64,000 nt of DNA from Candidatus Woesearchaeota archaeon (GTDB lineage Archaea > Nanobdellota > Nanobdellia > Woesearchaeales > UBA9989): contig DUKZ01000038.1 of the NCBI GenBank assembly GCA_013329045.1, forward strand, positions 126,294-190,293, in the 5' to 3' direction. The position numbers were made by a program, and so were the translations under genes. The notes under the pieces were generated by a model. That model made no database searches. It was given only the letters and a program-made list of their open reading frames with translations, and was not told the DNA's origin. This document shows positions 3,947 to 60,713 of the stretch, piece after piece; position 1 is the stretch's first letter, and every line of letters starts with the position of its first letter.

Positions 3947-4127
3947 GAGCCATAGGTTTTCCTGGATGGTATATAACCCTTTTGGCTATTTTCTTCAGAG
4001 TTTTGGCAATTGGGTTTGTAGAAAATAGTGGCGATCATCATCTTCCGAGGTTCTCTGAAATGCCCAATCAATCTATTTGGGGGTCAAGCAAACAGGAACA
4101 GCAAATCTCGGCTCACCAATAACCAAT

Positions 4128-4158
4128 ACCCTTCCATCTCTGGTGTGTGCGGGAGCGA
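4128..4158 (+). repeat. 31-nt exact direct repeat, copy 1 (rnz/endA intergenic spacer)
   Basis: ACCCTTCCATCTCTGGTGTGTGCGGGAGCGA is identical to 29224..29254. The flanks are unrelated. Confidence 0.9.
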
Positions 4159-4206
4159 GATTTTCTACAACGTGTTGGCAATCACAACCTTTTTAAGCAT
4201 GTGTTC

Positions 4207-4767: not shown

Positions 4768-4814
4768 GTTTACATTACCATAATCAATAAAAATCCCCCT
4801 TTGATGATCCACTT

Positions 4815-5843
4815 ATGGCCTCTCAGCAACAATTAGACACTGCAATCATCTCCCTGATGAAAGAATCAGGACCACTCATCCCAGTCAAGGTCGCAAAGAC
4901 TCTCAATACAAGCATCCTCATCGCATCTGCAATGCTCTCTACCCTCACATCCAATGGAAAAGTCAAGACCACATTCCTCAAGATTGATGGCACTCCCCTC
5001 TATTATCTTCCCGGCCAGGAAAGTGATCTTGCACACTATGCAGACAACCTCAATGAGAAAGATAAAAAAACATTTGAGCGACTCTCACATGAACATGTAC
5101 TGCGGGATGGTGGCCTCACCCCCCTCGAACGGGTGTCTATTAGGACCCTGAAAGATTTTGCTGTCCCAATCGAGGTTACCATACATGGAGAAAAAGAGCT
5201 GTTCTGGAGGTGGTACCTTTCGACGAATGAAGAGATCAAGCCACTCATCGGCAGGCTCATGGGCATACCAGAAAAGCCGGTTCCAGTCTCAGTTCCAACA
5301 CCAGAACCGAAGGAGGCTTCCCTTTCCCCTCCACCAAAAGAGGAACCACTTGATGAGAAAATAGAAGAAAGAGAGGAACTTGTTGAAGAACAAGAAGAAA
5401 AAGATGAACAAGAAGATGAATCTTCAAAATCCCTTGAGCAGCCAATCTCGAAGAAGGCCTTTCCCACACCAAAATCCCCCTTTAAACATGCTACAATAAA
5501 AAAAGATGATAAAGGATCATTCTTTGATGATCTCCATTTGTTCTTCGATGAAAGTGATATTGCCATCCAATCAGAGACTATCCTGAAAAAGAACGCAGAA
5601 GCCGAATACATCCTTCATGTTCCTTCCCCCATTGGCTCAATTCTTTTTTATTGCCGGGCAAAAGGGAAAAAGACGCTCACGGAAGGGGATATCAGCACCG
5701 TTTTTCTTGCCGGCCAATCAAAAAAATTACCAATATTATTATTGACAAATGGCAGCGTTTCCAAAAAAGCCCTTGCGATGCTCTCTAATGAGTGCCAGGG
5801 AATGCTTGTCAAAAACATCTACGATGGGAATACAACTAACTGA
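4815..5843 (+). CDS. hypothetical protein: two predicted winged-helix domains, an acidic linker and a C-terminal Mrr-like nuclease-fold segment
   Basis: 342 aa with an E/D/K-rich low-complexity centre. The C-terminus ILFYCRAKGKKTLTEGDISTVFLAG resembles the (D)..(E/Q)xK core of Mrr-type nucleases. The domain calls rest on pattern recognition only. Confidence 0.55.
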   Translation: MASQQQLDTAIISLMKESGPLIPVKVAKTLNTSILIASAMLSTLTSNGKVKTTFLKIDGTPLYYLPGQESDLAHYADNLNEKDKKTFERLSHEHVLRDGGLTPLERVSIRTLKDFAVPIEVTIHGEKELFWRWYLSTNEEIKPLIGRLMGIPEKPVPVSVPTPEPKEASLSPPPKEEPLDEKIEEREELVEEQEEKDEQEDESSKSLEQPISKKAFPTPKSPFKHATIKKDDKGSFFDDLHLFFDESDIAIQSETILKKNAEAEYILHVPSPIGSILFYCRAKGKKTLTEGDISTVFLAGQSKKLPILLLTNGSVSKKALAMLSNECQGMLVKNIYDGNTTN

Positions 5844-19969: not shown

Positions 19970-21163
19970 ATGGGGATTAGCCTGTGCATGATTGCACGAA
20001 ATGAGGAACAGCTCCTTGCTGATTGTCTTGACAGTGTGAAGGATCTTGTTGAGGAGATCATCTTTGTCGACACTGGCAGCGAGGACCAGACCGTAGCGAT
20101 AGCCTCAATATATACAAACCGAATCTTTCATAATCCATGGAAAGACAATGCAGATGAGCTGAGGAATTTTTCTCTTGGCCTTGCAACACAGGAATGGATC
20201 CTTGTCCTTGATGCTGATGAGGAACTGCCAAAACAAAGCTGTGATGCCATCCATGCATTGCTCAAGGATCCAACAGCTGATGGATATCTTCTTCTCCAAC
20301 GAAATTATACAAACTCATCGAGCGTCCCTGGATTTGCCCACCTTTCCTCGTTTTCTTCACCTAAACAACAGGGATTTCTCGGCTACTATGATAACCCCCT
20401 TTGCAGGCTGTTCAAACGGAAAAAAGAATTTCGCTTCACGACAAAAGTCCATGAAACGATAGAGCCTGCGATCCAGGCTCATGGGGTTCTTGCTCCAACA
20501 TCAATCATTATTGACCATTACCGTGAACTCAAGAACCAGGAAAAAGAAAAAGGGCACGCATACTATGAACGGCTGGGGAAGCATGTCCTGGATGCTCCAA
20601 CCGATGCAAAAAGCCTTGAGCGTCTTGGCATTGCCGCACACAACTTTCTTGGTGATCTGGACAAGGCAGAAGCTGCCTATAGGAAAGCTCTTGGCTTATC
20701 ACCACATCTTTACCGTGCACGGCTCAACCTGAGCGAGCTGTTCATCCAAAAGGGGGACATGCAAGAAGCGCTTTTGATAGTCAATGAAGGGCTTGCCCAT
20801 TTTCCGGATGATCCCTGGCTGCTCACGAATAAATCAACCATCCTCATCAACCTTAAACAGATTGCACCGGCAGAAGAAATCATCAACATTGTGCTTGGCA
20901 ATCATCCAACCCTTACCCCCGCCCTCCTCAACAAAGCAATCTGCCATGTGCTCAGGAAAGAGTATGCACCAGCATTGTCATGTTACCACTCTATCCTTTC
21001 GAGGGAGCCATGCAACCTGCAAACGCTCTACAACATGGCTTTGGTTTACATCCGGCTGGGCAGCATTGACAATGCAGAACTCTCCTTGGAGAAGGCACTC
21101 TCCTGCGACCCATCATTCTCTCAAGCAAAAAAATTAAAAGAAAAAATAAAAAAGAAGAACTAA
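19970..21163 (+). CDS. family-2 glycosyltransferase fused to TPR repeats
   Basis: The N-terminus ISLCMIARNEEQLLADCLDSV...VDTGSEDQT...VLDADE is a GT2 signature. The C-terminal ~200 aa form TPR-like helical repeats. Confidence 0.8.
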   Translation: MGISLCMIARNEEQLLADCLDSVKDLVEEIIFVDTGSEDQTVAIASIYTNRIFHNPWKDNADELRNFSLGLATQEWILVLDADEELPKQSCDAIHALLKDPTADGYLLLQRNYTNSSSVPGFAHLSSFSSPKQQGFLGYYDNPLCRLFKRKKEFRFTTKVHETIEPAIQAHGVLAPTSIIIDHYRELKNQEKEKGHAYYERLGKHVLDAPTDAKSLERLGIAAHNFLGDLDKAEAAYRKALGLSPHLYRARLNLSELFIQKGDMQEALLIVNEGLAHFPDDPWLLTNKSTILINLKQIAPAEEIINIVLGNHPTLTPALLNKAICHVLRKEYAPALSCYHSILSREPCNLQTLYNMALVYIRLGSIDNAELSLEKALSCDPSFSQAKKLKEKIKKKN

Positions 21164-22200: not shown

Positions 22201-23187
22201 ATGGGCTTATTACAATCATTACAACGGCGTGCGCGGGCAAATCCTCAAAGAATCGTATTTCCAGAGGGTGAAGAAGAGCGTATCCTCAAAGTTGCAGAAA
22301 AATGCGTGAAAACAAAAACAGCTGTTCCGTATCTTCTGGGTGACGAAAAAAAAATTATTCAGTTAAAACGAAAGTATAAGATAACAACAGATTTTGACAT
22401 TATCAATCCCCTAACAAGCCCTCTTCGCCAAAAACTTGCCGACGCATTCTTTGAACTGAGAAAAGAGAAAGGAGTTACTCCTGATGCAGCCCTCTTACAG
22501 ATGAATGATGCGATGTATTTTGGGACACTGCTCACCTACCTTTGCCTTGCTGATGGCGTTGTCTCTGGCTGTGTCCATACCACTGCAGATACGGTGAGGC
22601 CTGCATTGCAGATCATCAAAACCCGAGAACCATTTCATAAGGTCTCCGGGCTGTTTGTTTTGCTCTGGAAAAAGAAAGTATATTTTTTTGCAGACTGTGC
22701 GGTGATCATCGAACCAACACCAGAGGAGCTAGCTGACATCGCCTTGGACACTGCACATAATGCCCGGTGGCTTGGCATCACCCCCCGTGTTGTTTTCCTC
22801 TCTTTTTCTACCCATGATAACTATAACACTCCCCATCACCAAAATATCAAGAAAGCATTAGAGCTAGTCAAGACAAGGGATCCCAAGCTACTTGTTGATG
22901 GAGAAATGCAGCTTGATGCTGCCATTGTCCCAGAAGTTGGAAGGGTCAAATGCCCCAACAGTCCAATAAAAGGAGATGCGAATGTGCTCATCTTTCCAAA
23001 CCTCGAGTCGGCAAATATTGGATATAAACTTGTGGAGCGCTTTGGAAAAGCCATCGCTATTGGGCCAATCCTCCAGGGGCTCAGAAAGCCAGTCAATGAT
23101 GTTTCCAGGGGGTCTACTGTCGAGGATATCTTTGATACAACAATACTCACTTGCATCGAGGCCCAACAATGCTCATCCTTACACTAA
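22201..23187 (+). CDS. pta: phosphate acetyltransferase (PTA_PTB domain only)
   Basis: 328 aa. Motifs: IVFPEGEEERIL, DGVVSG, FADCAV, VVFLSFSTH, ANVLIFPNLESANIGYKL. Confidence 0.88.
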   Translation: MGLLQSLQRRARANPQRIVFPEGEEERILKVAEKCVKTKTAVPYLLGDEKKIIQLKRKYKITTDFDIINPLTSPLRQKLADAFFELRKEKGVTPDAALLQMNDAMYFGTLLTYLCLADGVVSGCVHTTADTVRPALQIIKTREPFHKVSGLFVLLWKKKVYFFADCAVIIEPTPEELADIALDTAHNARWLGITPRVVFLSFSTHDNYNTPHHQNIKKALELVKTRDPKLLVDGEMQLDAAIVPEVGRVKCPNSPIKGDANVLIFPNLESANIGYKLVERFGKAIAIGPILQGLRKPVNDVSRGSTVEDIFDTTILTCIEAQQCSSLH

Positions 23188-24266
23188 ACTGCGGGAGTTC
23201 TTCTATCAAATTTGCAGTGTATCAAAGTAAAGGTCAAAAGCAACTCACGACGGGTTATCAGGAGAATATTCTCTCTATCACCTCTTATCGTTCTTCTCTT
23301 AAACAGATCATCAATGAAACATCGCCTGATGCTATTGGGCATCGCGTCGTCCATGGCGGAATGCTCACCACCTCTTCTCTCATCACACCTTTTGTGATGA
23401 ACGAAATTAAAAGATATTCACACTATGCCCCCCTCCACAATCCTCCGGAGCTGCTTGGCATCACCATATGCAAAAAACACTTTGGTCATCTCCCACAAGT
23501 GGCAGTGTTTGATACAGCATACCATACAACAATCCCTTCCCCCGTTCGTACGTATGGGATCCCATATAAATATACAAAAAAAGGATATATGAAATATGGC
23601 TTCCATGGGACAAGCCATCATTACTGTGCAACGGAAGCTGCAAAGCTCCTTGGCAAGCCACTCTCTTCATGCAATCTTATCACCTGCCACCTTGGGAACG
23701 GATCATCTGTTTGCGCCATAAAAGGCGGAAAATCAGTTGATACCTCCATGGGGATGACCCCTCTTGATGGCGTCCTGATGGGGACGAGGTGCGGGATGCT
23801 TGATCCTGGCATCGTCCTAGCATTCCTCGAACAAGAAAAACTCTCTGTGAAACAGGTTGACCATCTTCTTAATCATTCGTCAGGCATGAAAGGGGTGTCT
23901 GGGATATCCCATGATTATCGGGCGTTGAAATACAACAAGCATCCGCGAGCCAAGCTCGTCCGTGAGATGCTTGCAATCAGCCTGCAAAAGATTATCGCAA
24001 GCTACCTTCCCGCCCTCCAGCGGGTTGATGCTATCATCTTTACCGCGGGGATTGGGGAGCATGTCCCAGAACTTCGGAAAGATATTGCTTTGGGGCTGGG
24101 GTTTTTAGGCGTAAAACTTGATGATCGGAAGAATAAGCGCAATGCTCCAATCATCAGCAAGGCAACATCCCCCATCAAGGTTTTTGTCATCAAAACAGAT
24201 GAACAACACCTCATCGCCCATGAAGTAGAAAGAGTCCTCAAACAACATACCGCAAAGAGGCGATAA
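23169..24266 (+). CDS. ackA: acetate kinase
   Basis: LTLNCGSSSIKFAVY, GHRVVHGG, AVFDTAYH, YGFHGTSH, HLGNGSS and FTAGIGE are canonical AckA motifs. At 365 aa the N-terminal lobe is somewhat shortened. Confidence 0.9.
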   Translation: MLILTLNCGSSSIKFAVYQSKGQKQLTTGYQENILSITSYRSSLKQIINETSPDAIGHRVVHGGMLTTSSLITPFVMNEIKRYSHYAPLHNPPELLGITICKKHFGHLPQVAVFDTAYHTTIPSPVRTYGIPYKYTKKGYMKYGFHGTSHHYCATEAAKLLGKPLSSCNLITCHLGNGSSVCAIKGGKSVDTSMGMTPLDGVLMGTRCGMLDPGIVLAFLEQEKLSVKQVDHLLNHSSGMKGVSGISHDYRALKYNKHPRAKLVREMLAISLQKIIASYLPALQRVDAIIFTAGIGEHVPELRKDIALGLGFLGVKLDDRKNKRNAPIISKATSPIKVFVIKTDEQHLIAHEVERVLKQHTAKRR

Positions 24267-25306: not shown

Positions 25307-25319
25307 TTTATATATATAG
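25307..25319. promoter_or_regulatory. palindromic TATA element (TTTATATATATAG) shared by divergent pelota and the surface operon
   Basis: It lies ~20-32 nt from both start codons (25287 on minus, 25341 on plus), implying short or absent leaders. Confidence 0.45.
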
Positions 25320-25340: not shown

Positions 25341-26531
25341 ATGAGAGGGCGTTCAAAAAGAGGTCAAGGAGCTGGCGCTGGGCAAGCTGCAACATTCATT
25401 GCACTCATCGCTTTCTTCATCGTACTCTATATCCTTTTCCTCCCCCCAGCAGACCGTGAAGCCCTCCTGAATGATGATACCAGCAGCACCTGCACTGGCA
25501 CTTTTTGCACCCATGAAGGAGAAATACTCCTCGAAGAAACCCCTGGGAAGCTCGATACCCTCGGGTTTTCCTCTTTTGAGCACCATATTGCAAGCTTCAC
25601 CATCTTTCAAAAAGAGGATGCAACCGAATTCCTCAAACTTCAAACAATTTCTGTAAAGAGCGACTGGTTCAAGAAAAACAGCGCTAATGCAACATTCTCC
25701 ATCCAAGATCCCACAAAAGTTTCCAGTGCCCTGCTTGCCTTTAGCACTCCCATCCGAAAAGGATTGCTTACGATCCAACTAAATAGAAAAACAATTTTCT
25801 CTGGTGATATTCACACAGAAAATATTGATCCAATCATGCTTCCCCCTGCTCTCCTCAACCAAGAAAATGTCCTTACATTCACCGTAGACAACCCTGGTTT
25901 TGCATTCTGGACGAGCAATGCGTACCGGCTGGAAAATCTCCAAGTCATTGGCACGGTAGTCGACAATACCCGTCAATCTGCCACACAATCATTCTTTATC
26001 ACCCAAAAAGAAAAGGAGAACCTCGAGCGTGTCAATCTCAAACTCTTCCCTGACTGCAATCCCTCTGCCAGCGGGATCCTCACCCTCCACATCAATGATC
26101 GGGCCATCTTCTCAGGCATTCCTGACTGCGGCATCCTTAACCGGTACGAGTTTGACCCTGCAACGCTCACCCCTGGAGAGAACACCTTCTCTGTCAAAGC
26201 TGACACGGGAAGCTATCTCCTCGACCAGATTGTTATTGTCACCGAACTTACCGCACCAGATTACCCCACCTATTACTTCCTCGTTGATCCCGAAGCCTAT
26301 GATGCAATCAGGGCCTTTGGGGTTGATGCAAACCTTGACATAGAATTCGTCGAACAGGAGGACTTGAACTCAATTGTCCTTAACTTAAATGGCGTAAAAA
26401 AACAGGTGAGAACCAGAGATATGTTCGCTTCATTGCTTGTCAATGATTTCATCCTGAAAGGAAACAATTACCTGCAGATTGTCCCGCAAAGCGATGTGAA
26501 CATAGCAAAGGTTCGTCTCACCCTCTCATAA
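25341..26531 (+). CDS. exported repeat protein with class-III (prepilin-like) signal peptide candidate; first gene of the surface operon
   Basis: The N-terminus MRGRSKRGQGAGAGQAATFIALIAFFIVLYILF has a basic head, a KRG/Q motif and a ~22-aa hydrophobic helix. It is followed by three ~100-aa internal repeats (LLTIQLNRKTIFSGD.. / ILTLHINDRAIFSGI.. / IVLNLNGVKKQVRTR..). Confidence 0.75.
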   Translation: MRGRSKRGQGAGAGQAATFIALIAFFIVLYILFLPPADREALLNDDTSSTCTGTFCTHEGEILLEETPGKLDTLGFSSFEHHIASFTIFQKEDATEFLKLQTISVKSDWFKKNSANATFSIQDPTKVSSALLAFSTPIRKGLLTIQLNRKTIFSGDIHTENIDPIMLPPALLNQENVLTFTVDNPGFAFWTSNAYRLENLQVIGTVVDNTRQSATQSFFITQKEKENLERVNLKLFPDCNPSASGILTLHINDRAIFSGIPDCGILNRYEFDPATLTPGENTFSVKADTGSYLLDQIVIVTELTAPDYPTYYFLVDPEAYDAIRAFGVDANLDIEFVEQEDLNSIVLNLNGVKKQVRTRDMFASLLVNDFILKGNNYLQIVPQSDVNIAKVRLTLS

Positions 26532-26558: not shown

Positions 26559-29500
26559 ATGCCCAGTGATGATGAAGTCCTGCGGGAAAAAGTCGATCAG
26601 GATATGGAAGATTTGAAGAAACGTGTTCGCAACGGAGAACGCTCCACTCAAGCTTTTGATGAGGAATCGTTTGCCCGAGAAATCCAGGAGAGCAAAGTAC
26701 GCGAACGAGCAGCCCGCCGGGAGCTGGTAGCAAATGAACAAATCCGGCGAACTAACCTTCAGGCAGCACAGCAAACAACAGGAAAACTTCCTTCACAGCT
26801 AGACAGGTTTGGGCAAGAGGCATTGTCACAAGACCAACGCCTTGCTGCGCAGGAAAGCGGACAAGAAGAAGCTTCTTGGAAACGAGCACAAAACGCTGTT
26901 CGCACCCAGACACAAATGGCTGCTTCTGGAATTCGGCAGATGGGCAGGGCAACTACACAGGCAGGCTTTGCATTTGCGCAAAAAACCGGGGAAGCTGCCC
27001 AACGAACGGGCGCTGCGACAGTACGAGGGGTTGGAACTGTTGGCAGGGCTGTGAGGCAGACACCATCTCGGGCATGGAACGGCGTCATCAAAATAAAGAG
27101 TGCTGTTGGAAATGTTGGCAATTTTGTCAGCCGCCAGATGCAGATGGACAATTTTGCGTATTGGAGCATTCTTCTCCTTTATCTGATTGATCTTGTTTCC
27201 GGCTTCAATTATATGATGAGGATAGTGATCTATATCCCAGCAGCGGCCATAGCCGCTGTTGCGTGGGGTGGAGGGGGTGACCTAAAGAGCACTGCCTCAA
27301 AATATTTTGGGTTCTACCTGCTTGTTGTCCTGCCACCATTCATGAAATTTTTTTCTATAGTCTACTCCCCTGCGACATCCATCTTTATTGATTACTTTGC
27401 TGTCTATGGAAACCTGTTTGTGTATATGGCATTGGTGCGTGCACCAGATCCTGGAAAACTCATCTACAAATTACCAAAGGTCGCTTATTTTACATTCATT
27501 GTGTTCACTCTCATAGGCTCGTCTATCAGCTTTGCGATGTTCTCTTCCGGGTATACCAGTAATATCAATGTGAACCTTGTGATGAAAGGAAGCTGGGATG
27601 CATTCAAGGCAGGATATGAGAACACAAAAATCGCGATTGTCCGGGGGCTTCGTGGCGCAAAAAACATTGTTCCCAACTATCTTGATATCGCGACGAATGG
27701 AGCGTATACTGGCAATGCAGATACGTCGAAGACGAGATATTGGGCTCTTGAGCCATCAGCCACCAGGCTCTTTAATCCTCCAAAAGGACTCAAGCCAAAC
27801 ACGGCCTTCCATGTCATCTCCACGTTCGATGGCTTTCGAGAAGTGCAAATCGAGGGCGAGGTCGTCAGGAAATTCGAGGATCTCTCGAGCAAAACACAGG
27901 TAAATTATGGGTGCAGAGCATATAAACTTCTTGATAAGGAGAGAACTTCCCTTGGTGATGGAACTGTTGATAAATCATCAGATATCCTTTTCAACATGTT
28001 AGGATGGAATTCTGCCGAGCCGGTTTCCAGCGATGTTCGCTGCAGCTTTACAAATGGCCTTTCAGAATCCGGAAAAATTGAGGTATATGCTGGCTTTTCG
28101 TTTGCTGCAGAAGCAGTGCACACCTTTTCCTATATAGACCAAGAAGAAGCATTATCACTCATGAGCACTTCACGGATGACTGGAAATGCGATCTTTGATT
28201 CAAGCACTGCGTCTTCTAGAGAGAACACCATCAAGGGAAAATTGAAAGCATTGGAAGAGAATACCATCACTACCACAACACCTGGGCCTGTGGTCATCGC
28301 AACAGAGTGGCGGACAGCATACCCATTACGCATAGACACAGAAAATCCTTCACAGCTTGATTTGCTCATCAGTATCCACAATACTCATGCATCAGGGCAA
28401 ATAGCCGGACTTTCTGATTTCACTGTTTCCCTTCCCAAAGGATTCACCCTCAGCGAATGCAGCGTTGGGAGGCGGCAGGAAAATGAAGGGACAATGAGCT
28501 TTTCCAAGACTGGAGGGGATGAATTCTATTCTACTTTCACCGCGAATTTTCCAGACACATTGTTTCCTGTGACAACCTCACTTTCCATGTGGTGCCCTGT
28601 CACATATACTACTGAAGTGCTTCGCGGTGGAGCAATCAAAGAAAGACAAGAACTTAGGCTTGCGACAAATTATAATTATGAAGTCGTGGATAAATATGAT
28701 ATTGTTGTTGCAAAATTGCCCGCGCTCAATACTGGCGGTTCCGGGGGCTTTGGCGGGGGGGCGTGCAGCGCGGCTGCTCACTGCAGCGGGTATAATGAAG
28801 AGTCATTGAAGAATGGAGTGTTTGCTGGATGCGCCCGCGACCACCAAGATATTTTCAAACGAGAGATGCAAGATCAAGGACTCGGGCTTGATCTAGTGAC
28901 CGTGTATGCGTTTGCCTATACAGAAAGCTCTTGCAACCCTGATGTCAATGATGGGGGGATACTCCAAGTAGACCAAGCATGCCTTTATGAAAAAAAATGC
29001 AGCGCTGTTGAAGACCAGATTCATTATGGCATCCAAGAACTCAAGGAGAAATATGAAGCAGCACGGGCTCTTGGCGTGTCAGATGATGATGCAGCAACAC
29101 TCATGTTTTTTGGCTATAATCGAGGGGTTGGTGCGATGAGAAAAGCTGCGGAATTCCTCAAGGCTGACCCGTCAGCCGGCATCCAGGATGCAATGGTGAA
29201 AGGATGCAAGGCATATTTTCCAAACCCTTCCATCTCTGGTGTGTGCGGGAGCGATGGGGAGAGATGCTGCAATTCCCCTGGCCTTGGAGCTGGCTATCCT
29301 GAGCGAGTGAAGAGCTTCATGCAGCAGGGATGCCAGCAGGCAGGGGGAAGCATTGCGTTGGCCGGTGGGACATGCAACAGCGCCGAAGGGAATTCTCCTA
29401 CAGGGGGATTTGGACAGACTGTTGATATGTCTGATTATATCTCACGGGAGCAAGTGAATATTGTTTCTACAAGGTACAAGCAGCGATCTGGCACTGTCGA

Positions 29501-29930
29501 CATGATCGTGATGCATCATACAGCAGGACGAACAGTTAAAGATGCGCTTTTGTCCTGGGTAAACAGGAAAGCTAGTGCACACTATATTGTTGATAAGGAT
29601 GGCACTATAGTGACAGTCATACCTGAGAATCAAGCAGCATGGCACGCCACATGCGTCAATGGTCATTCTATTGGGATCGAGATTGTGAACCTTGGGGAAG
29701 GCAATGATCCATATCCTCCCGCGCAAGTTCAAGCGGTCGATTCTCTCGTCAAATATCTTGCAGACAAATACCATATCCAAGATGGCAACATCATCGGGCA
29801 TGGGTGTGTCACCTCAAATAAGATGGCAAGTGAGCCAACAGACCTTCCCCGAGACCTTGGGAACGGGTTAAAATTATATACTCGCGAAAGCAATGCACCA
29901 TATCCATGCACCTTCCTTGGGTGTTCATAA
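26559..29930 (+). CDS. giant multi-pass membrane protein with two-module beta-rich ectodomain, SLT lytic transglycosylase domain and Amidase_2 (N-acetylmuramoyl-L-alanine amidase) domain
   Basis: 1123 aa. From N to C: a Q/A/R-rich cytoplasmic N-terminus; hydrophobic helices at ~27150-27560; SLT motifs AYTESSCNP..GGILQVDQ..FFGYNRGVG (Glu codon 28923-28925); and Amidase_2 motifs VDMIVMHHTAG..SAHYIVDKDGTIV..AWHA..NGHSIGIEIVN..IIGHG..EPTD (~29490-29860). Confidence 0.88.
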   Translation: MPSDDEVLREKVDQDMEDLKKRVRNGERSTQAFDEESFAREIQESKVRERAARRELVANEQIRRTNLQAAQQTTGKLPSQLDRFGQEALSQDQRLAAQESGQEEASWKRAQNAVRTQTQMAASGIRQMGRATTQAGFAFAQKTGEAAQRTGAATVRGVGTVGRAVRQTPSRAWNGVIKIKSAVGNVGNFVSRQMQMDNFAYWSILLLYLIDLVSGFNYMMRIVIYIPAAAIAAVAWGGGGDLKSTASKYFGFYLLVVLPPFMKFFSIVYSPATSIFIDYFAVYGNLFVYMALVRAPDPGKLIYKLPKVAYFTFIVFTLIGSSISFAMFSSGYTSNINVNLVMKGSWDAFKAGYENTKIAIVRGLRGAKNIVPNYLDIATNGAYTGNADTSKTRYWALEPSATRLFNPPKGLKPNTAFHVISTFDGFREVQIEGEVVRKFEDLSSKTQVNYGCRAYKLLDKERTSLGDGTVDKSSDILFNMLGWNSAEPVSSDVRCSFTNGLSESGKIEVYAGFSFAAEAVHTFSYIDQEEALSLMSTSRMTGNAIFDSSTASSRENTIKGKLKALEENTITTTTPGPVVIATEWRTAYPLRIDTENPSQLDLLISIHNTHASGQIAGLSDFTVSLPKGFTLSECSVGRRQENEGTMSFSKTGGDEFYSTFTANFPDTLFPVTTSLSMWCPVTYTTEVLRGGAIKERQELRLATNYNYEVVDKYDIVVAKLPALNTGGSGGFGGGACSAAAHCSGYNEESLKNGVFAGCARDHQDIFKREMQDQGLGLDLVTVYAFAYTESSCNPDVNDGGILQVDQACLYEKKCSAVEDQIHYGIQELKEKYEAARALGVSDDDAATLMFFGYNRGVGAMRKAAEFLKADPSAGIQDAMVKGCKAYFPNPSISGVCGSDGERCCNSPGLGAGYPERVKSFMQQGCQQAGGSIALAGGTCNSAEGNSPTGGFGQTVDMSDYISREQVNIVSTRYKQRSGTVDMIVMHHTAGRTVKDALLSWVNRKASAHYIVDKDGTIVTVIPENQAAWHATCVNGHSIGIEIVNLGEGNDPYPPAQVQAVDSLVKYLADKYHIQDGNIIGHGCVTSNKMASEPTDLPRDLGNGLKLYTRESNAPYPCTFLGCS
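29224..29254 (+). repeat. 31-nt exact direct repeat, copy 2 (inside the giant hydrolase gene, Cys-rich linker between SLT and amidase domains)
   Basis: Same 31-mer. It encodes ..NPSISGVCGSD.. Confidence 0.9.
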
Positions 29931-30988
29931 TGAAAAAAACATCACAAATATTCCATATTGCTTTTCTCTGCACCATCCTTCTTTTCCTTTCAGCTTGCAA
30001 TAAAGGAAGCTCCATCAAAGACTTCAATTTCCAGCAAGGCACGAAAGGGGTGAGCATGAGCACAATCAAAAATGCGCCTCCCCGAGAAATCATAGAAAAA
30101 GTGCAATTTAAGGTAGGCATCGAGCTGCACAATGAAGGAGCATATGATATCAAAGATGGCGAAGGATACTACCGAATTGTGCTTGATAAAGATCTCAACT
30201 GGTTTACCCAGCCACCTTATCAAACACTCCAGCCAGACAATCAAGGCATGGCAGCACCAGTCCTTGTAGACTTTTCCCTTAGAGGCAGGCAGGCAGCGCT
30301 TCCTCCAGGGGAGATTAGAGCCACGTTTGTTGATGTTGTGTCCAAGGAAGTTACTGGAGGACGAAAAGTTGATTCGAAAATCCGGGTAAACGGGTGCTAT
30401 TATTATGAGACAAAAGCGTTTACTGATATCTGTGTCAATCCTAATATTTATCAAGTCGGAAAGACGGACTATGTGTGTGAAACAAAACCGGTGAGCCTCT
30501 CTGGCGGTCAGGGCGGGCCGATCGATGTGACAAAAGTTGAGCCGACTATAATACCACTACAAAACGGCAATTATAAAATTAGGTTCAAGATTACTGCCCA
30601 TAATAGGGGAAAAGGAACTGCTTATAAGCCTACCACCAGCGGAGGGGTAACCGAAATTAGATCCGCATGTGTTGGAGAAAAACTTGGAGACCGATGGAAC
30701 AAAATAAAACTCTATGCAAAACTCTCTGAAGTACAGCTCAACTGCGCATTTGAGACACAAAACACCGGTGACTTTGCGAATACTGAAGGGGTTGGAATAC
30801 TCTTCAACAATGACCTTGAAGCGGTGTGCGAAACCCCTGAGATGACAGAAAAAACCCCTTATTTTACCCCCCTCTATGTCCATATGCAGTATGGGTATAC
30901 CTTTGATGAGGCTATCACCATCTCCATCGTCAACCAAAATTATGAATATGAACAAGCGCATCAGAAAGAAGGAAGTTCAGGACAGTAA
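29930..30988 (+). CDS. lipobox surface protein, paralog 1 (twin CARDB-like modules, Cys-rich)
   Basis: The signal peptide ends in the lipobox LFLSAC. Family motifs: FQQGTKG, VGIELHNEG, NGCYYYETKAFTDICVNP, VCETKPVSLSGGQGGPIDV, FKITAHNRGKG, MQYGYT. ATG 29930 overlaps the upstream stop (TAATG). Confidence 0.85.
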   Translation: MKKTSQIFHIAFLCTILLFLSACNKGSSIKDFNFQQGTKGVSMSTIKNAPPREIIEKVQFKVGIELHNEGAYDIKDGEGYYRIVLDKDLNWFTQPPYQTLQPDNQGMAAPVLVDFSLRGRQAALPPGEIRATFVDVVSKEVTGGRKVDSKIRVNGCYYYETKAFTDICVNPNIYQVGKTDYVCETKPVSLSGGQGGPIDVTKVEPTIIPLQNGNYKIRFKITAHNRGKGTAYKPTTSGGVTEIRSACVGEKLGDRWNKIKLYAKLSEVQLNCAFETQNTGDFANTEGVGILFNNDLEAVCETPEMTEKTPYFTPLYVHMQYGYTFDEAITISIVNQNYEYEQAHQKEGSSGQ

Positions 30989-31045: not shown

Positions 31046-32089
31046 ATGGAAAAAAAGAGACATCTTATAAGGGTTCTTGTCCTGCTAATAGTATTCTTGC
31101 TTGTCGGCTGCAAAGGGAAGAAGCAAGAAGATTCAGGACCGTCTGCCACCATCAGCGGCAGTGATGGCATCAGCATGTCTTTCATGAAGATCGTGAGCGA
31201 TAAGGTCTATAGCAATGCGCAGATGCGGGTTGGCGTCGAAGTAGAGAATGAAGGGACTTGTGACATGGGGCGCTATGCTGATGGGACGTATGATTGTGTC
31301 GGACACATCAAGATGCTCGGTCTTGATCCTACTATCTTTCACATCCCCGATTGGGATAATGGGGGACGAGTGGCAACTCAGGTAGAACTTGGGCGAAGCG
31401 TCTTTTTGCCCGGGAAGAGCAATAATATCCCCACAGGAGGAAAAGAGATCATCACGTATCCTGGCATTACCGTCCAGCTGAATCCAGAATCTGCAGGGCA
31501 CAAAACGAATCTTGCCCTCCATGCCTGCTATCTCTATAAAACCAGAGCCACCATTCCTGTCTGCATTGATCCCCTAGCATATGGCGATTTCCTTGGAGAA
31601 AAAGTATGCGATGTCAAGCCAATCACCCTCAAGGACCAGGGAGCCCCTGTTGCCGTCGTTAAAGTTGATCCTGAAGTATTCCTTGGCAGCGGGAACCAAT
31701 ACCAGATGCAATTTCGCATCTACTTCAAGAATGTTGGCCCAGGCATGCTGTTCCAGGCGGACCGTGATGGAGCTGAAAATGAAAACCTTGAAGCATGCCC
31801 TGCAATTGACTATGATTACCAGAATAAAGTTAAAGTTGACAGAATCGTCCTTGGCTCGGTTGTCAATCCTGAACTTAGCATCCCTCTTATCTGCCAACCT
31901 GGGATTAGTGACCAGATAACCCTCTATGACAATCAAGGGCTTATCATCTGCCAAACAAACGGCGATCTTGGGCAAGATACCTATCAAACGACATTATTTG
32001 TCGAATTATCCTATGGTTACACCCAATCAATCAAGAAGCAAATAACTGTCGTTAATACTCCAACACTCCAGAGGGCAAACCTGAACTAA
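31046..32089 (+). CDS. lipobox surface protein, paralog 2
   Basis: Lipobox FLLVGC. Family motifs: VGVEVENEG, HACYLYKTRATIPVCIDP, VCDVKPITLKDQGAPVAVV, FRIYFKNVGPG, LSYGYT. Confidence 0.85.
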   Translation: MEKKRHLIRVLVLLIVFLLVGCKGKKQEDSGPSATISGSDGISMSFMKIVSDKVYSNAQMRVGVEVENEGTCDMGRYADGTYDCVGHIKMLGLDPTIFHIPDWDNGGRVATQVELGRSVFLPGKSNNIPTGGKEIITYPGITVQLNPESAGHKTNLALHACYLYKTRATIPVCIDPLAYGDFLGEKVCDVKPITLKDQGAPVAVVKVDPEVFLGSGNQYQMQFRIYFKNVGPGMLFQADRDGAENENLEACPAIDYDYQNKVKVDRIVLGSVVNPELSIPLICQPGISDQITLYDNQGLIICQTNGDLGQDTYQTTLFVELSYGYTQSIKKQITVVNTPTLQRANLN

Positions 32090-32090
32090 A

Positions 32091-33437
32091 ATGGAATCAG
32101 ACAAAAAAATATCAAAAACATCAAAAATATTCACTGCACTCCTTTTAGTATTCCTGCTTTTCCTGGCTGGATGCGGGGGAGGAGCTGCCAAAAAGACTCC
32201 TGAAGGGGGCTCTGACTTTCGCCGGGGGACTCAGGGTCTTGAGCTAGACTTTGTCCGGGGAACGCCCCCAGAAAAAATCATCGCTATCCCCTCCAATAAT
32301 CCACAATACAACTGGTTTACAAATATGTTTGGAGAAGGAGGGTTCTCTATTAATGTAGAAGTGATCAATAAAGGCGCTGAGAGCACCCCTCCAGTATTCT
32401 CTGAAGATGCCGATACGCTTTTTCCTAGTTATTTTCTTGGGACATATGGCTATTCCAGCCTTGGCGGCCTTGTCAACTATGATGCTGCATATTCTGCGTA
32501 CCCAGAACTCCATTCCATTTTTCCTCCACCAAATATCCATCTCTCAGGGTTTGACCAGTCAATCGTGCAGACGACAAATAGCATCGGGACGAGCGCTACG
32601 TATGGGTATGTGAACACCCCGGACTGGCTTCGCACCATGGAATGCGCATTCTTCTATGGAAGCATTGTCCAGTGCGTTGGCGGCGGCGGAGGGGCGCTTG
32701 GAGCACAATCAGGGCTCTATCCACAAATCAATACCATCGTTCCAATGCTTGGGACAGAAGAGACACGAGGAAGAGTGGGAATCAGAGACATCGTGAGCTT
32801 TACTGTTAACAATATTGCCATCTCCTCTGATATTGATAAGTATCCTGTCCGCTGGAAGGCCACCGCCTGCTATTACTATAAGACGGTTGCTTCACCTACC
32901 ATCTGCGTTGATCCAGACCAGTACTCTGTCGATGAGAAAGTATGCAAGGTGCAAGAGCATCAAGCCGTTTCTGGGGGCCAGGGAGCCCCTGTGGCAGTCA
33001 TTGGGGTTGACCAACAAATGAGCTATAACCGTGCATATTTTAAAATTACCATAAAAAATGTTGGCAGGGGAAAAGTATATGACCCCACAAACATTGATAT
33101 CCATTCCCGATGCATCATCGACAAGCTTCGTCCAGGCGATGTGAACAAGGTGTTCTATGATGTTGCTCTTGGCTCGTTCAACCAGAATTATGCCACTGGT
33201 GCCAGGAACATCAGATGCGACACAAATCCTCTCTTCCCCTATCCTTATTCTGGCGTTGCATACCTTGACCCTGATACTGGTGAGGGAGAAATCTTCTGCA
33301 CTCTTGAACTCACCGACTTCCAGGCCCACATTGGTTCCTCGACCTCAGCATTTTCATCTCCCCTTGCCATCCAACTCATCTATGGATATACAGAGTCAGA
33401 CTATGCTGATACAGAGATCATAACCCAGCCACGATAG
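32091..33437 (+). CDS. lipobox surface protein, paralog 3
   Basis: Lipobox LFLAGC. Family motifs: FRRGTQG, INVEVINKG, TACYYYKTVASPTICVDP, VCKVQEHQAVSGGQGAPVAVI, FKITIKNVGRG, LIYGYT. Confidence 0.85.
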   Translation: MESDKKISKTSKIFTALLLVFLLFLAGCGGGAAKKTPEGGSDFRRGTQGLELDFVRGTPPEKIIAIPSNNPQYNWFTNMFGEGGFSINVEVINKGAESTPPVFSEDADTLFPSYFLGTYGYSSLGGLVNYDAAYSAYPELHSIFPPPNIHLSGFDQSIVQTTNSIGTSATYGYVNTPDWLRTMECAFFYGSIVQCVGGGGGALGAQSGLYPQINTIVPMLGTEETRGRVGIRDIVSFTVNNIAISSDIDKYPVRWKATACYYYKTVASPTICVDPDQYSVDEKVCKVQEHQAVSGGQGAPVAVIGVDQQMSYNRAYFKITIKNVGRGKVYDPTNIDIHSRCIIDKLRPGDVNKVFYDVALGSFNQNYATGARNIRCDTNPLFPYPYSGVAYLDPDTGEGEIFCTLELTDFQAHIGSSTSAFSSPLAIQLIYGYTESDYADTEIITQPR

Positions 33438-33512: not shown

Positions 33513-34712
33513 ATGAAAAAGATCACTATTTTTCTCGTAGCAGTATTGCTTGTTCTCAGCGCCTGTGGCTCTTCGAAAGAGAATAGCGCCAGACCTGATG
33601 CAACAGAACCATTCATTGGAGGCAACGATGCCCTCAAATTTGGCTTTGCACAGGGAACACCACCAGACTTTGTCTTTGACAATAACCAGAACCCTTTTGC
33701 CATCGTAAACCAGATCGAGAACCTTGGCGAAGCAGACGTTCCTGCCAATAATCTTGTCATCAAGGTTGTCGGCGTCAATCCTATGGACTTTGGTATCGAT
33801 ACTGAAGCAGACCGGGCTGCCTATCGCTATCCTGGCCTTGACCCTAATGCGCTAGACATTGTTGATGCAAATAGGCAGTTTATCACTGGCGCCAGAAAAA
33901 ATTTTGATGGCACACAACTGCCAGGAGACAAGGACTATGTCGAATTCCCTGATCTTGTGTACCTGCCAGACCTCAATGGGAATACTGGGGTTATCATCCG
34001 GGCAGAGGCATGCTATAACTATATGACAAAAACATCAACACTCCTTTGCATCAAGAAAGACCTGCTTGCCGATTCAAACAGCGAAATTCGTGTCTGCAAA
34101 CTTTCAGAGGAAAAAGACGCAAAGAATTCCGGCGGCCCTGTCCAGGTCACTGCACTCAAACAAGTGCCCCAGGGAAGGAACAAAATCCAAGTCACTTTCA
34201 TGGTAGAACATGTTGGCCATAAGTCTGCCCGGCTCTATGAGATCGAACCAGCATATGCCGAAGGATATGAACACAGCGTCTCTACCGGCATTGACTTTAA
34301 AGGAGTTCCCATCAATGCACCAATCATCCAACAAAACACAGGACTTCCACCCGAGAGCTCATGCCTTGATGACGTGACAAACAGGAGAATGAACCGGGTG
34401 CTCATCGATGTGACATCGCTCCATAGCGGTCAGCCAGTCATCTGTTCTGGCTTTGATGCGACAGGCGTTGGAGGGGAGGCAATCCCAGCACCTCTTGGCG
34501 GCGTTCGGCAGGTTGGCAAATCACGAGGATATGTGACACTCTGGAAAGATGCCCAGGGAGGAACACTCCAACCAAGAGCAATCACGTGCACGATTGATAC
34601 GACAAACATCGGGCCTGATGAGGTATATGAAGAACTCCTGACCATGGATCTTTATTACACCTACCAGCAGAGCATCGAGAAACCGATGGAAATCAGAGAT
34701 GTGAAGACGTAA
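33513..34712 (+). CDS. lipobox surface protein, paralog 4 (most divergent)
   Basis: AGGAGG RBS. Lipobox LVLSAC. Family motifs: FAQGTPP, VNQIENLG, EACYNYMTKTSTLLCIKK, VCKLSEEKDAKNSGGPVQV, FMVEHVGH, LYYTYQ. Confidence 0.85.
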   Translation: MKKITIFLVAVLLVLSACGSSKENSARPDATEPFIGGNDALKFGFAQGTPPDFVFDNNQNPFAIVNQIENLGEADVPANNLVIKVVGVNPMDFGIDTEADRAAYRYPGLDPNALDIVDANRQFITGARKNFDGTQLPGDKDYVEFPDLVYLPDLNGNTGVIIRAEACYNYMTKTSTLLCIKKDLLADSNSEIRVCKLSEEKDAKNSGGPVQVTALKQVPQGRNKIQVTFMVEHVGHKSARLYEIEPAYAEGYEHSVSTGIDFKGVPINAPIIQQNTGLPPESSCLDDVTNRRMNRVLIDVTSLHSGQPVICSGFDATGVGGEAIPAPLGGVRQVGKSRGYVTLWKDAQGGTLQPRAITCTIDTTNIGPDEVYEELLTMDLYYTYQQSIEKPMEIRDVKT

Positions 34713-34760: not shown

Positions 34761-35711
34761 TTATTCCTTCACCACAAAATTTGCCAGCAACGCCTGGACT
34801 TGCAAGAACTCATCACTCCCTTCTGTTATCCTAAACTCAATCTCGCCGCATTTGTCGATGAGATGGACTTTTCTTCTCTCCGGGATATCAAGATCCCAAA
34901 TGACTCGCTCAATTTGCTTGACAACATCAAGGCCGGAAAGGCCGTACTTGAGCATAACATCGAGAAGAGCTGATCTTGCCTCGAGGAATTTTCCCTGCAT
35001 GGCAAGAGAAAGAGCTTCGCCAATTTCCTTTGGCCTGGCAACAGCAGCAATCGAGTAAATGTCGTTCTCATCAATATTCTTCTTTAAAGCAGCGCAGGAC
35101 TGAAGGATATTTTCCATCTTCCTGCAGTCTCCCTCACTGACGATGAATAAGGCTTCTTTTGCCTGCCTATCTGCGCTGAGCCCCTCTTTTGCGATGATCT
35201 CATCTAGTATCTCAAATATCTCAGACTTTTCCAGCGGCTTGAAGCGAAAAACAGCGCATCTGCTCTGAATCGGATCTATGATCTTGGAAGAATAATTACA
35301 AGAGAGCACAAAACGAGTTGTCTGGGTGTAGTTCTCCATCGTCCTCCTGAGAGCTTGCTGGGCTTCTCTTGTCAAGGCGTCACATTCATCCAGAAAGATA
35401 ATCTTGAAAGGGACATTCTCCATCGCCCTTGTTCTCGCAAAATCCTTTACCTTATTCCTGATCACATCAATGCCGCGCTCATCTGACGCGTTGAGCTCAA
35501 GAAAACTCTGGTGCCAAATCTCCCCATAGAGCTGCTTTGCGATGACTAACGCCAGAGATGACTTTCCAACGCCAGCTGGCCCTGCAAAGAGGACATGAGG
35601 CATATTCTTTTCCCGGACAAAAGCCTTGCAGCGCTTGACGATCTCCTTTTGACCCTTTATCCCGCTAAAATCAACAGGACGATACTTTTCCGTCCAGATC
35701 GTGCTCGCCAT
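34761..35711 (-). CDS. rfcS: replication factor C small subunit
   Basis: WTEKYRP, GPAGVGKS (Walker A), FLDECD, SRC motif (IQSRCAVFRF). Confidence 0.93.
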   Translation of the reverse strand: MASTIWTEKYRPVDFSGIKGQKEIVKRCKAFVREKNMPHVLFAGPAGVGKSSLALVIAKQLYGEIWHQSFLELNASDERGIDVIRNKVKDFARTRAMENVPFKIIFLDECDALTREAQQALRRTMENYTQTTRFVLSCNYSSKIIDPIQSRCAVFRFKPLEKSEIFEILDEIIAKEGLSADRQAKEALFIVSEGDCRKMENILQSCAALKKNIDENDIYSIAAVARPKEIGEALSLAMQGKFLEARSALLDVMLKYGLSGLDVVKQIERVIWDLDIPERRKVHLIDKCGEIEFRITEGSDEFLQVQALLANFVVKE

Positions 35712-50630: not shown

Positions 50631-51977
50631 CTAAGCATTCTCTTGCTTTGGTGTTTGCGTTGTTGTGCCCCTGGATGAACTCTTAGTCTTTCCCGGCTTC
50701 TTTTGCTTTCCAGCTTTCCTTAGGGTGTAGTGGACAGGATTCTTTATCTTTGCACAGAGGTTGTCTGGCTTGCACACACCAATGTCAATATAATACATCT
50801 GATTGTCGCAGTTTGGGGGGAGCATGGATTTCTTGTTTTGTTTATGATACCTAATCTGGCCTAAAAGAATTGTTTCTCTCAATGGTTCTGGGTTCTTCTT
50901 GTTCCATTCCAGCAACCGCTGCTCTATCATATCATAACTCCAGCCAATACTCTGGAGGAAGTTGACGAGGGCGAAGACTGCGCGTTTTTTACCGTCATTG
51001 ATGCCCTTGAAGATGAGGTGCATGCAGGGGGGAAATGCCTCTTCTGGGAGAGCTACTTCCGGGATGATGAACTCTTTTTGCTCATTCTTTTCTTTTGTCT
51101 CTTCGAGCTTTGCTGTTGCGTCGAGTGCCTGAATGATGAGTGAGCGTGCTTCTTCACTCCTTGCCTGCTGCTTGTCTAAAAAGCGGTGGTTTGGAACAAC
51201 GATATTTTCCGGATTTGCCAAACCCTTGTCAAAATCCATAACCTGCTCTAGGAGGATTGGGAGTGATGCCAAGCCTGATTTCTCGTGCAGGGAGTAAGGC
51301 ATCCGAAAAAGATGGCGCTGGGAGATGAGGATCGTGTCAATACCTACTATCTTATAAGGGTCAAATGCGTTGTTGATGATAAACTCTTTTGGGTTCATGC
51401 CGCTTTTTTTTGCTATTGTTTCGATGTTGTCTGTCTTCAGGATAGCCTTGCTGAGATGAGACCTTGTCATTTCTTGGAGATATGCGGCTATTGCTCTTGG
51501 TGCATCGGGAAACAATGATTCGATTGGTTGATTGTTGATGGTCTTTGGAAATGATTCAAACGGCACACCGATATGAAAGCCTTTGTTGCCGGAGAATTTT
51601 ATCGAAACAGCCTGGATGCCATGGTACTTCAATGCCTGAATGAGCATGACCGCTGATAATTTTGTGTAGTCCCACACATTACAGTCAATGTCTATTATCA
51701 GGTCCCATCCAATCCGGAGCTCTTCAACCTCCCTTTTGTTCATCGAGGTGGTGAGGGAAAGGGGATTGTCCCAGTGCTCTTCTGATGCATGAAAACTCGT
51801 TGCGCCTTTCTTTACAAACTCAAGAATTTCTGCCTCATAGTTGAGGATGTCTGGCCTCTTGCCAAAACCTTTCTCTCCATATTTGACAGCAATTTCCCTG
51901 CCCTTTGCGTTCTCAGCCATCTCCTTTTGGATGTCCTGGCGCTTATAGTATTTCAATAGGGTGCTGATATGGATCAT
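50631..51977 (-). CDS. priS: DNA primase: PriS catalytic subunit fused to a PriL-type C-terminal Fe-S domain
   Basis: AEP motifs WDLIIDIDCN, FSGNKGFHIGVPF and RMPYSLHEKSG. A C-terminal ~130 aa carries FPPCMHLIF...FALVNFLQSIGWSYDMIEQRL...PPNC..GVC..NLC (four Cys). Confidence 0.85.
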   Translation of the reverse strand: MIHISTLLKYYKRQDIQKEMAENAKGREIAVKYGEKGFGKRPDILNYEAEILEFVKKGATSFHASEEHWDNPLSLTTSMNKREVEELRIGWDLIIDIDCNVWDYTKLSAVMLIQALKYHGIQAVSIKFSGNKGFHIGVPFESFPKTINNQPIESLFPDAPRAIAAYLQEMTRSHLSKAILKTDNIETIAKKSGMNPKEFIINNAFDPYKIVGIDTILISQRHLFRMPYSLHEKSGLASLPILLEQVMDFDKGLANPENIVVPNHRFLDKQQARSEEARSLIIQALDATAKLEETKEKNEQKEFIIPEVALPEEAFPPCMHLIFKGINDGKKRAVFALVNFLQSIGWSYDMIEQRLLEWNKKNPEPLRETILLGQIRYHKQNKKSMLPPNCDNQMYYIDIGVCKPDNLCAKIKNPVHYTLRKAGKQKKPGKTKSSSRGTTTQTPKQENA

Positions 51978-60641: not shown

Positions 60642-60713
60642 GATCTCTCTTCTCTTGTCACCTTTTTGATCCGATGCAATACTTATTTAAATGTGCTCCT
60701 TCCTGCCCCCCCT

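Follow-up and report, generated by a model that had tools for sequence, protein, structure and literature searches.

Predicted membrane carrier with exchangeable murein-hydrolase cassettes in a DPANN-type archaeon

The gene, its predicted topology and its enzyme domains

The gene described here lies in a 64-kb stretch of DNA (64,000 nucleotides (nt) of contig DUKZ01000038.1, assembly GCA_013329045.1, hereafter the window), whose source contig was recovered from a groundwater metagenome and is attributed to a Candidatus Woesearchaeota archaeon. This open reading frame (ORF) of 1123 codons, with an ATG start on the forward strand (26559..29930), is predicted to encode a membrane protein ending in two domains that resemble murein (peptidoglycan) hydrolases. 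The gene content of the window is archaeal and includes TFE-alpha, a tRNA-splicing endonuclease, FEN1, Hef, AglB, PAN, Pelota, RFC and SecY. With a GC content of 0.475, in line with its surroundings, the target gene is not anomalous in composition. One further ORF (50631-51977, reverse strand) encodes a single protein of 448 amino acids (aa) in which PriS (aa 101-241) and PriL (aa 273-412) are joined. Since a fused priS-priL gene was identified as a synapomorphy of Undinarchaeota and DPANN Cluster 2 (Dombrowski et al. 2020, PMC7414124), the host can be placed in one of these two groups.

Several segments can be distinguished along the target protein (Table 1). A preliminary examination limited to the letters of the DNA and their translations (hereafter the sequence-only reading) had proposed a 1123-aa fusion that begins with about 190 hydrophilic residues rich in Gln, Ala and Arg and has a Cys/Gly-rich linker behind its first enzyme domain, all of which is borne out. 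The hydrophilic head (aa 1-195) contains 13% Ala, 12% Arg, 12% Gln and no Cys, and occupies the place of a signal peptide, no signal-peptide-like start being seen at the N-terminus, while aa 901-960 contain 20% Gly and four Cys. The same reading had counted at least four hydrophobic helices. The hydrophobic block stands, and the count does not, with hydropathy delineating five helices of transmembrane (TM) length (aa 199-217, 219-237, 250-268, 275-293 and 308-326). The helix that had been missed, IFIDYFAVYGNLFVYMALV, sets the parity of the block, which is odd because this helix is included. Three residues of the TM block (F216, R221 and Y225) are invariant across the family described below, whose other members have five or seven TM helices, always an odd number once a weakly hydrophobic, conserved R-x-x-x-Y helix is counted. 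In the target, the predicted inside loops carry two and four Lys or Arg residues, and the outside loops zero to one. A head devoid of signal peptide is expected to remain cytoplasmic, and five helices would then bring the C-terminus outside. All 20 Cys of the target are located after residue 452, including four that do not vary across the family, a distribution that fits extracytoplasmic disulfides.

The region that follows the membrane block is conserved in the family, with C452, C495, C634, C679 and a G576-P-V motif being invariant in the alignments. The AlphaFold model of this ectodomain, built from a seven-sequence alignment, consists of a helical stalk and two beta-sandwiches, with a mean predicted local distance difference test (pLDDT) of 63, values of 70-88 in the cores and a predicted template-modelling score (pTM) of 0.63. 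Foldseek searches for this fold returned generic beta-sandwich matches only, including the C-terminal domain of AglB, integrins, and MSCRAMM and AgI/II adhesins, all with a template-modelling score of about 0.2, and no specific homologue.

At the C-terminal end, the match of aa 978-1082 to Amidase_2 (PF01510) is unambiguous by profile comparison, with E=6.9e-30 and 104.5 bits against a Pfam cut-off of 26. The region also matches 17 PHROG amidase/endolysin families and, in the PDB, AmpDh2, AmiD, AmpD and T7 lysozyme. Three residues, H986 (the first His of M-H-H-T-A-G), E1041 (S-I-G-I-E) and H1081 (I-I-G-H-G), fall in invariant columns when aligned with five bacterial and phage amidases, and they align with AmpDh2 as well. 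We take H986 and H1081 to be the two His zinc ligands, equivalent to H17/H122 of T7 lysozyme and H34/H154 of AmpD, and E1041 to be the catalytic Glu, equivalent to E116 of AmpD. The third zinc ligand of Amidase_2 enzymes, found 8-10 residues past the second His, is an Asp in AmpD and a Cys in T7 lysozyme and the peptidoglycan recognition proteins. The target differs from the AmpD-type enzymes in this region, where E-P-T-D replaces their K-x-D-P-G after a 4-residue insertion: MAFFT aligns E1092 with the Asp of that motif, D1095 comes three residues later and C1083 is an alternative. The Lys equivalent to AmpD K162 also aligns uncleanly. Unlike these amidases, the domain forms part of an archaeal protein, in fusion with a membrane carrier.

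Ahead of the amidase, aa 758-870 display the motifs of an SLT lytic transglycosylase in their order and usual spacing, with T-E789-S-S, G800-I-L-Q803 11 residues further on, and G852-Y-N-R-G856 some 50 residues beyond. When submitted in isolation, this segment remained below the Pfam cut-offs for both SLT (PF01464; 17.6 bits versus 21.3, E=2.9e-3, model positions 10-105 of 117) and Lysozyme_like (18 bits versus 25, E=2.2e-3), and its single sequence found no match in the PDB. E789 and G800-I801 are invariant when the target is aligned with the SLT segments of its relatives P0004, P0005 and P0006, and the segments of P0004 and P0006 exceed the Pfam cut-off; hhalign comparison of the target with a P0004/P0006 profile aligned the motifs with a score that is not significant. 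With the family profile, MltC was the sole PDB match, at a marginal E=0.037, and the Glu column fell on the Glu of the T-E-S-S motif of MltC; a further MltC entry has a Gln at this column, by appearance an engineered substitution. AlphaFold, working from a shallow alignment of four sequences, modelled the segment as all-helical, with E789 where a helix ends on its C-terminal side, at a mean pLDDT of 58 and with values below 50 in the catalytic region. Foldseek searches with this poor model gave nothing significant, the matches to MltF having a TMq of 0.47-0.52 and E>5. On motif and alignment evidence, the assignment of this segment to the lytic transglycosylases is probable, with E789 as the candidate catalytic residue. 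The sequence-only reading had named both enzyme cores. For the first, the motifs and E789 are present and the Pfam score falls short; for the second, the domain and both His ligands hold, and the Asp designated as third ligand (D1095, in EPTD) is ambiguous, E1092 aligning in its place.

Table 1. Segments of the target protein and features of its operon, in window coordinates
Feature	Position	Strand	Basis or remark
TATA-like box TTTATATATATA	25307..25318	+	Read from sequence; between the divergently oriented Pelota and up396 genes, 23-34 nt ahead of the up396 start codon (ATG); candidate promoter of the operon
up396, 396-aa membrane-anchored protein, first operon gene	25341..26531	+	One hydrophobic helix ending LYILFLPP
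Target, A/R/Q/G-rich head, aa 1-196	26559..27146	+	Composition; predicted cytoplasmic
Target, five-helix TM block, aa 197-329	27147..27545	+	Hydropathy, loop charges, alignment
Target, conserved ectodomain, aa 330-725 (helical stalk and two beta-sandwich domains)	27546..28733	+	Alignments, AlphaFold model
Target, Gly-rich junction GGSGGFGGGAC..., aa 726-745	28734..28793	+	Family alignment; cassettes diverge here
Target, SLT-like (GH23-type) lytic transglycosylase segment, aa 758-870	28830..29168	+	Sub-threshold profiles, motifs
Target, Cys/Gly-rich inter-domain linker, aa 883-960	29205..29438	+	Composition, Cys positions
Target, Amidase_2 domain, aa 978-1096	29490..29846	+	Pfam, PHROG and PDB matches, alignment
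lp360, lipobox (...LFLSAC), paralogue group A	29930..30988	+	Start overlaps target stop (TAATG)
lp366, lipobox (...LLVGC), paralogue group B	31046..32089	+	
lp448, lipobox (...FLAGC), extra paralogue nearest group B	32091..33437	+	
lp399, lipobox (...VLSAC), paralogue group C	33513..34712	+	Last of cluster before the convergent RFC gene

A carrier with variable cassettes and its operon

An exhaustive HMMER search with residues 1-750 against 1.84 billion cluster representatives produced seven hits, one of which was a fragment of the query, leaving six relatives (P0002 and P0004 to P0008). The head, TM block and ectodomain are common to all of them, at 19-29% identity, and their heads are rich in Ala, Gly, Lys and Arg, with repeated T-G-R-G-A-like units. 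Downstream of this common part, the C-terminal cassettes differ. While the target combines the SLT-like segment with Amidase_2, a Peptidase_M23 is found in P0002, an SLT-like stretch followed by NlpC/P60 in P0005, SLT followed by VanY in P0006, and a glucosaminidase followed by NlpC/P60 in P0007. The order of domains also varies, as P0004 has its NlpC/P60 peptidase ahead of SLT, and P0008 has no cassette, its sequence stopping just ahead of the Gly-rich junction. Catalytic motifs are visible in the relatives, including H-x-x-x-D and H-x-H for M23, the Cys and His of NlpC/P60, and H-x6-D together with W-H-x-E for VanY. Bacterial murein is the only substrate that all these enzyme classes have in common, and this provides the strongest argument that the family cuts the bacterial wall. 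As judged from the alignments, this is a very small, lineage-specific family in which a conserved carrier (head, TM block and stalk) has had its predicted murein-hydrolase cassette exchanged repeatedly at a fixed Gly-rich junction.

Other search strategies added no member. In word-index searches, the full-length query matched only itself, a profile containing the TM block matched nothing and an ectodomain-only profile recovered only P0008, a failure probably due to saturation by low-complexity and TM words. Scans of GTDB species representatives, JGI metagenome contigs and IMG/VR with back-translated patterns were equally negative, which is weak evidence, as the source genome and the JGI contigs known to carry P0007 were also missed, although the family is clearly rare. 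In P0002, the closest relative, the head occurs as a separate 163-aa ORF (L004:2711-3202), 52 nt upstream of the ORF encoding the TM block, ectodomain and M23 domain (3255-5399, TTG start); the gene may be genuinely split, or the assembly may contain a frameshift.

The target occupies the second place in a compact same-strand gene cluster composed of up396, the target, lp360, lp366, lp448 and lp399, which ends at 34712 and is located between the genes for Pelota and the RFC small subunit, both on the reverse strand. Signals read from the sequence, namely a TATA-like box, Shine-Dalgarno-like GAGG motifs and the TAATG overlap between the target and lp360, have the appearance of an operon. Orthologues of up396 with 33-48% identity are found directly upstream of the carrier in all relatives for which the contig is sufficient (L002 and L004-L009), and the protein has no Pfam, NCBIfam, PHROG or PDB match. 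The orthologues (window 25341-25450; L002:1266, L004:1484, L005:4319, L006:8761, L008:373) start with a basic K-R-G-Q, followed by a polar spacer of 5-15 residues and a helix ending L-Y-I-L-F-L-P-P. This motif resembles the surroundings of the R-G|Q cleavage site in some archaeal pilin-like signal peptides, from which the spacer is an atypical departure, and it could correspond to a processing site or to a plain signal anchor.

The genes downstream of the carrier belong to a single paralogous lipobox family that comprises three orthologous groups (A, B and C) and one extra copy in the window, with three to four copies per locus. Beyond signal-peptide-like matches, no relative of up396 or of the lipoproteins was found in Pfam, NCBIfam, PHROG or PDB. 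A kinship between the ectodomain and these lipoproteins, proposed on the basis of a shared "GPV..." and a terminal "Y-x-Y", was rejected, since hhalign gave E=0.58 and BLASTP nothing. The group A lipoproteins of three relatives (L003:3225-4376, L005:8727-9896 and L008:4475-5632) have a Cys-rich C-terminal extension (...C-x-x-D-Y/F-P-x-G-S-K-C-N-D...D-C-x-W/F-G-C-C...) that is absent from lp360 and from the L006 copy.

The order Pelota, up396, carrier, lipoproteins and RFC, with Pelota and RFC on the opposite strand, recurs wherever the contigs of the relatives reach, and the flanking genes are orthologous. In the longer contigs, the outer flanks are also kept, with TrmB and acetate-metabolism genes ahead of Pelota and the cluster, and RFC, L34e, an EMC3-like gene and SecY beyond it. 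Between the same pairs of loci, identity reaches 75-78% for RFC and TrmB and 44-48% for Pelota, and is 19-29% for the carrier module. Synteny and flanking identity thus indicate that the locus is vertically inherited, with the carrier as its fastest-evolving part.

Markers of mobile genetic elements were also looked for. Neither the window nor the eight related contigs contain markers of type IV secretion systems (T4SS), such as VirB4/VirD4 or a relaxase, and no phage, integrase, capsid or tail genes were found in the window or in the contigs of the relatives. Residues 1-750 of the target have no PHROG family, and the IMG/VR pattern scans revealed no relative of the carrier. In tblastn searches against phages and plasmids, the Amidase_2 region found matches of only 25-36% identity and the SLT part none, so that no donor can be named. 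The kinship with conjugation, secretion and phage-tail lysins implied by the sequence-only reading is therefore unsupported, the gene being part of a vertically inherited chromosomal operon. Its accompanying statement that such a protein is not typical of archaeal housekeeping needs to be qualified, as murein hydrolases of DPANN archaea have already been published (PMC8204110, PMC9723730, PMC12352652).

Interpretation and rival readings

Taken as predicted from its sequence, the target is probably a polytopic membrane protein by which a DPANN-type archaeon displays two murein-specific enzymes outside the cell, for use on bacterial murein at its surface. The head of about 195 aa would stay in the cytoplasm, and the five TM helices would anchor the protein with its N-terminus inside and its C-terminus outside. 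A stalk of about 400 aa, made of two presumably disulfide-stabilised beta-sandwiches, and flexible Gly-rich linkers would hold out the two enzyme domains. The SLT-like lytic transglycosylase would cut the glycan between N-acetylmuramic acid (MurNAc) and N-acetylglucosamine (GlcNAc), with E789 as candidate catalytic residue, while the zinc amidase would cut the MurNAc-L-Ala bond by means of H986, H1081, E1092 or D1095, and the putative catalytic E1041. The genes of the operon would be co-expressed, and the single-pass up396 and the three to four lipoproteins would probably form a surface assembly with the carrier. Because they are tethered and the producer is without murein, the enzymes would act only on bacterial peptidoglycan in contact with the surface of the archaeon, and the likely purpose would be to open the sacculus locally in a bacterium that serves as partner or prey, during attachment or feeding. 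The sequence-only reading had similarly proposed an outward action on a foreign sacculus by a membrane-tethered enzyme. This is the best-supported interpretation in view of the odd TM parity, the loop charges, the Cys distribution and the murein-specific cassettes, and it keeps the status of a prediction in which the SLT segment is sub-threshold.

More tentatively, the six-gene operon as a whole might be an archaeal surface apparatus for the contact-dependent breaching of bacterial walls, in which the carrier serves as a chassis whose heads are exchanged according to the wall chemistry of different bacterial hosts. If this were true, the locus would provide direct genomic evidence of episymbiosis with bacteria, or of predation on them, by a DPANN lineage, and the type of cassette would predict host range.

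Several points weigh against the display of murein hydrolases for use on bacteria. Support for it is computational throughout, activity and topology being predicted from sequence, and the topology derives from hydropathy and charge rules. The SLT segment scores below the Pfam cut-off and its fold search gave nothing significant, and the amidase aligns uncleanly at its third zinc ligand and at the Lys equivalent to AmpD K162. No recognised cell-wall-binding domain was found in the target with Pfam. No informative homologue was found for the ectodomain or for the accessory proteins, so that a surface complex is suggested by synteny only. The family is also very rare, and its biological importance may be narrow. 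Finally, all cultured DPANN archaea have, to our knowledge, archaeal hosts, and none a bacterial one.

Among the alternatives, a role in nutrient scavenging is possible, if unlikely. Under this hypothesis, the tethered enzymes would digest free peptidoglycan fragments or the sacculi of dead cells in groundwater and so supply a metabolically reduced archaeon with amino sugars and amino acids, and no attachment to living bacteria would take place. The same enzyme set fits such a function, a surface tether would keep the products near the cell, and DPANN archaea have been predicted to be scavengers of cell debris (PMC9723730). However, neither the operon nor the 64-kb window contains genes for muropeptide salvage or for the uptake or catabolism of muropeptides and amino sugars, which may be found elsewhere in the genome, and the swapping of cassettes together with the fast evolution of the carrier fits an arms race or an adaptation of host range better than bulk digestion.

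That the enzymes are instead shed appears improbable. Cleavage at the Gly-rich junction would free a soluble two-domain lysin that kills distant competitors, in the manner of haloarchaeal peptidoglycan hydrolases. Archaea are indeed documented to kill bacteria with secreted peptidoglycan hydrolases (PMC12352652), and proteases might plausibly cut in either of the flexible Gly-rich linkers (aa 726-745 and 883-960). Yet, a free enzyme of this kind would have no cell-wall-binding domain to hold it on its target, the operon encodes no dedicated protease, and the elaborate, conserved carrier and the carrier-only P0008 argue for a role of the carrier beyond export.

Even less credible is an enzyme directed at the archaeon itself, which would remodel a murein-like or other glycan-peptide polymer of its own envelope. 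This poorly supported view would agree with the chromosomal, vertically inherited locus and its housekeeping flanks, and with the presence of the AglB glycosylation enzyme in the window. Against it speak the 64-kb window, in which no mur genes and no genes for the synthesis of pseudomurein or another wall were found, and the swapped enzyme classes (lytic transglycosylase, MurNAc-L-Ala amidase, M23, NlpC/P60, VanY and glucosaminidase), which target bonds of bacterial murein; pseudomurein is without MurNAc and D-amino acids. Nor would a housekeeping autolysin be expected to change its bond specificity between close relatives.

A mobile-element origin, as a conjugation or secretion remnant, a phage tail lysin or a tape-measure protein lodged in the chromosome, is largely refuted and has a negligible chance of being correct: the assembly of a membrane anchor, a glycosidase and a peptidase or amidase does resemble T4SS hydrolases of the PrgK, CwlT or TraG type and tape-measure proteins that bear lytic domains, and the best PHROG and phage matches of the amidase are endolysins, but the failure to find an ATPase or any of the marker genes named above in the window or in any contig of a relative, the low identity of the phage and plasmid matches, the lack of carrier matches in PHROG and IMG/VR, the normal GC, and the same chromosomal position in organisms that share about 75% identity in RFC and TrmB all speak against it.

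The display of murein hydrolases by a tethered carrier nevertheless shares its general design with some of these systems. Like PrgK of pCF10, CwlT of ICEBs1, TraG of pIP501 and the VirB1 class, the target has an N-terminal anchor and an outward pairing of a glycosidase with a peptidase or amidase suited to a local opening of the sacculus. These hydrolases act on the wall of their own producer and within T4SS clusters, whereas the producer of the target is without murein, and the target has no T4SS genes close by and an anchor, head and stalk that show no relation to theirs. With polymorphic toxins, phage tail lysins and tape-measure proteins, the target shares a fixed N-terminal module for delivery or anchoring and C-terminal effectors that are exchanged at a set junction. 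In contrast to these, its locus contains no immunity, secretion-system or phage structural genes, its predicted effectors are all murein hydrolases, and it is chromosomal and syntenic.

Within archaea, the concept of murein hydrolases aimed at bacteria is already known, and the target family is a variant of it. Large extracellular transglycosylase proteins of up to 3000 aa were reported in small-genome Pacearchaeota and Woesearchaeota, including fam00969 (Castelle et al. 2021, PMC8204110), and "vampiristic" Woesearchaeota with GH23 genes were described by Vigneron et al. 2022 (PMC9723730), both studies proposing that DPANN lytic transglycosylases act on bacterial walls. The target is similar to these proteins by its DPANN host, its large size and surface or extracellular location, its transglycosylase-type domain and the proposal of episymbiosis or predation, the likeness to fam00969, which was compared by description, being limited to host type and domain. 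While those reports give a transglycosylase domain only, the target family has a carrier with five to seven TM helices, cassette exchange and a six-gene operon, and the target itself an Amidase_2 domain. Modular secreted archaeal peptidoglycan hydrolases that kill bacteria, prominent in Nanoarchaeota and many of them equipped with a Sec or Tat signal peptide or found as injection-system cargo, were surveyed by Strock et al. 2025 (PMC12352652), with a recognised cell-wall-binding domain (LysM, SH3, PG_binding, etc.) as a requirement. They have in common with the target their bacterial-type catalytic domains in archaea, domain shuffling and a use against bacteria that is either demonstrated or presumed. 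They are soluble and secreted, unlike the target, which is predicted to be polytopic and has neither a signal peptide nor a wall-binding domain and would therefore be missed by the criteria of that survey. No description was found in the literature of a polytopic carrier of this kind devoid of wall-binding domain and signal peptide, of cassette exchange at a fixed junction in one orthologous locus, or of the partnership with up396 and lipoproteins.

Whether DPANN archaea parasitise or prey on bacteria has so far been argued from isolated transglycosylase annotations, and this locus offers a sharper, testable handle on the question. The occurrence of the same anchor and neighbourhood with different wall-cutting enzymes suggests that these archaea physically attack or feed on bacteria, and the tethered design implies cell-cell contact. 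The wall chemistry of the partner bacterium could be predictable from the type of cassette, whether M23 (Gly bridges), VanY (D-Ala-D-Ala), NlpC/P60 (gamma-D-Glu-diaminopimelic acid), amidase or glycosidase. The catalogue of archaeal antibacterial enzymes would also be extended to membrane-anchored enzymes without a wall-binding domain.

Other features of the window

Two genes of the window may be relevant to the surface glycosylation of the ectodomain and the lipoproteins. The first (19970-21163, forward strand) encodes a 397-aa fusion of a family-2 glycosyltransferase with a long array of tetratricopeptide repeats, upstream of the TrmB and acetate genes, and the second is the gene for a 948-aa AglB/STT3 at 60666-63512. 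Next to the TrmB regulator, the window also encodes a bacterial-type pair of phosphotransacetylase and acetate kinase (22201-24266, forward strand). At the same site in L006 (GCA_053532215.1), a pair resembling ADP-forming acetyl-CoA synthetase is present, indicating that the acetate module was replaced at a syntenic site. The RFC small subunit of L006 (18375-21404, reverse strand) is a protein of 1009 aa that contains an intein with a LAGLIDADG endonuclease, whereas the RFC of the window (34761-35711) is intein-free.

In a scan of the 64-kb window with Rfam, no family, tRNA and rRNA included, reached its gathering score. Nucleotidyltransferase genes are present in two regions, 52375-53458 (reverse strand) and 58922-59940 (forward strand). 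One of them forms a pair with a HEPN gene that is reminiscent of a HEPN-MNT toxin-antitoxin module, while the other is followed by a small ORF without a Pfam match. The first of these pairs is located in a low-GC stretch (0.386 at 52-54 kb).

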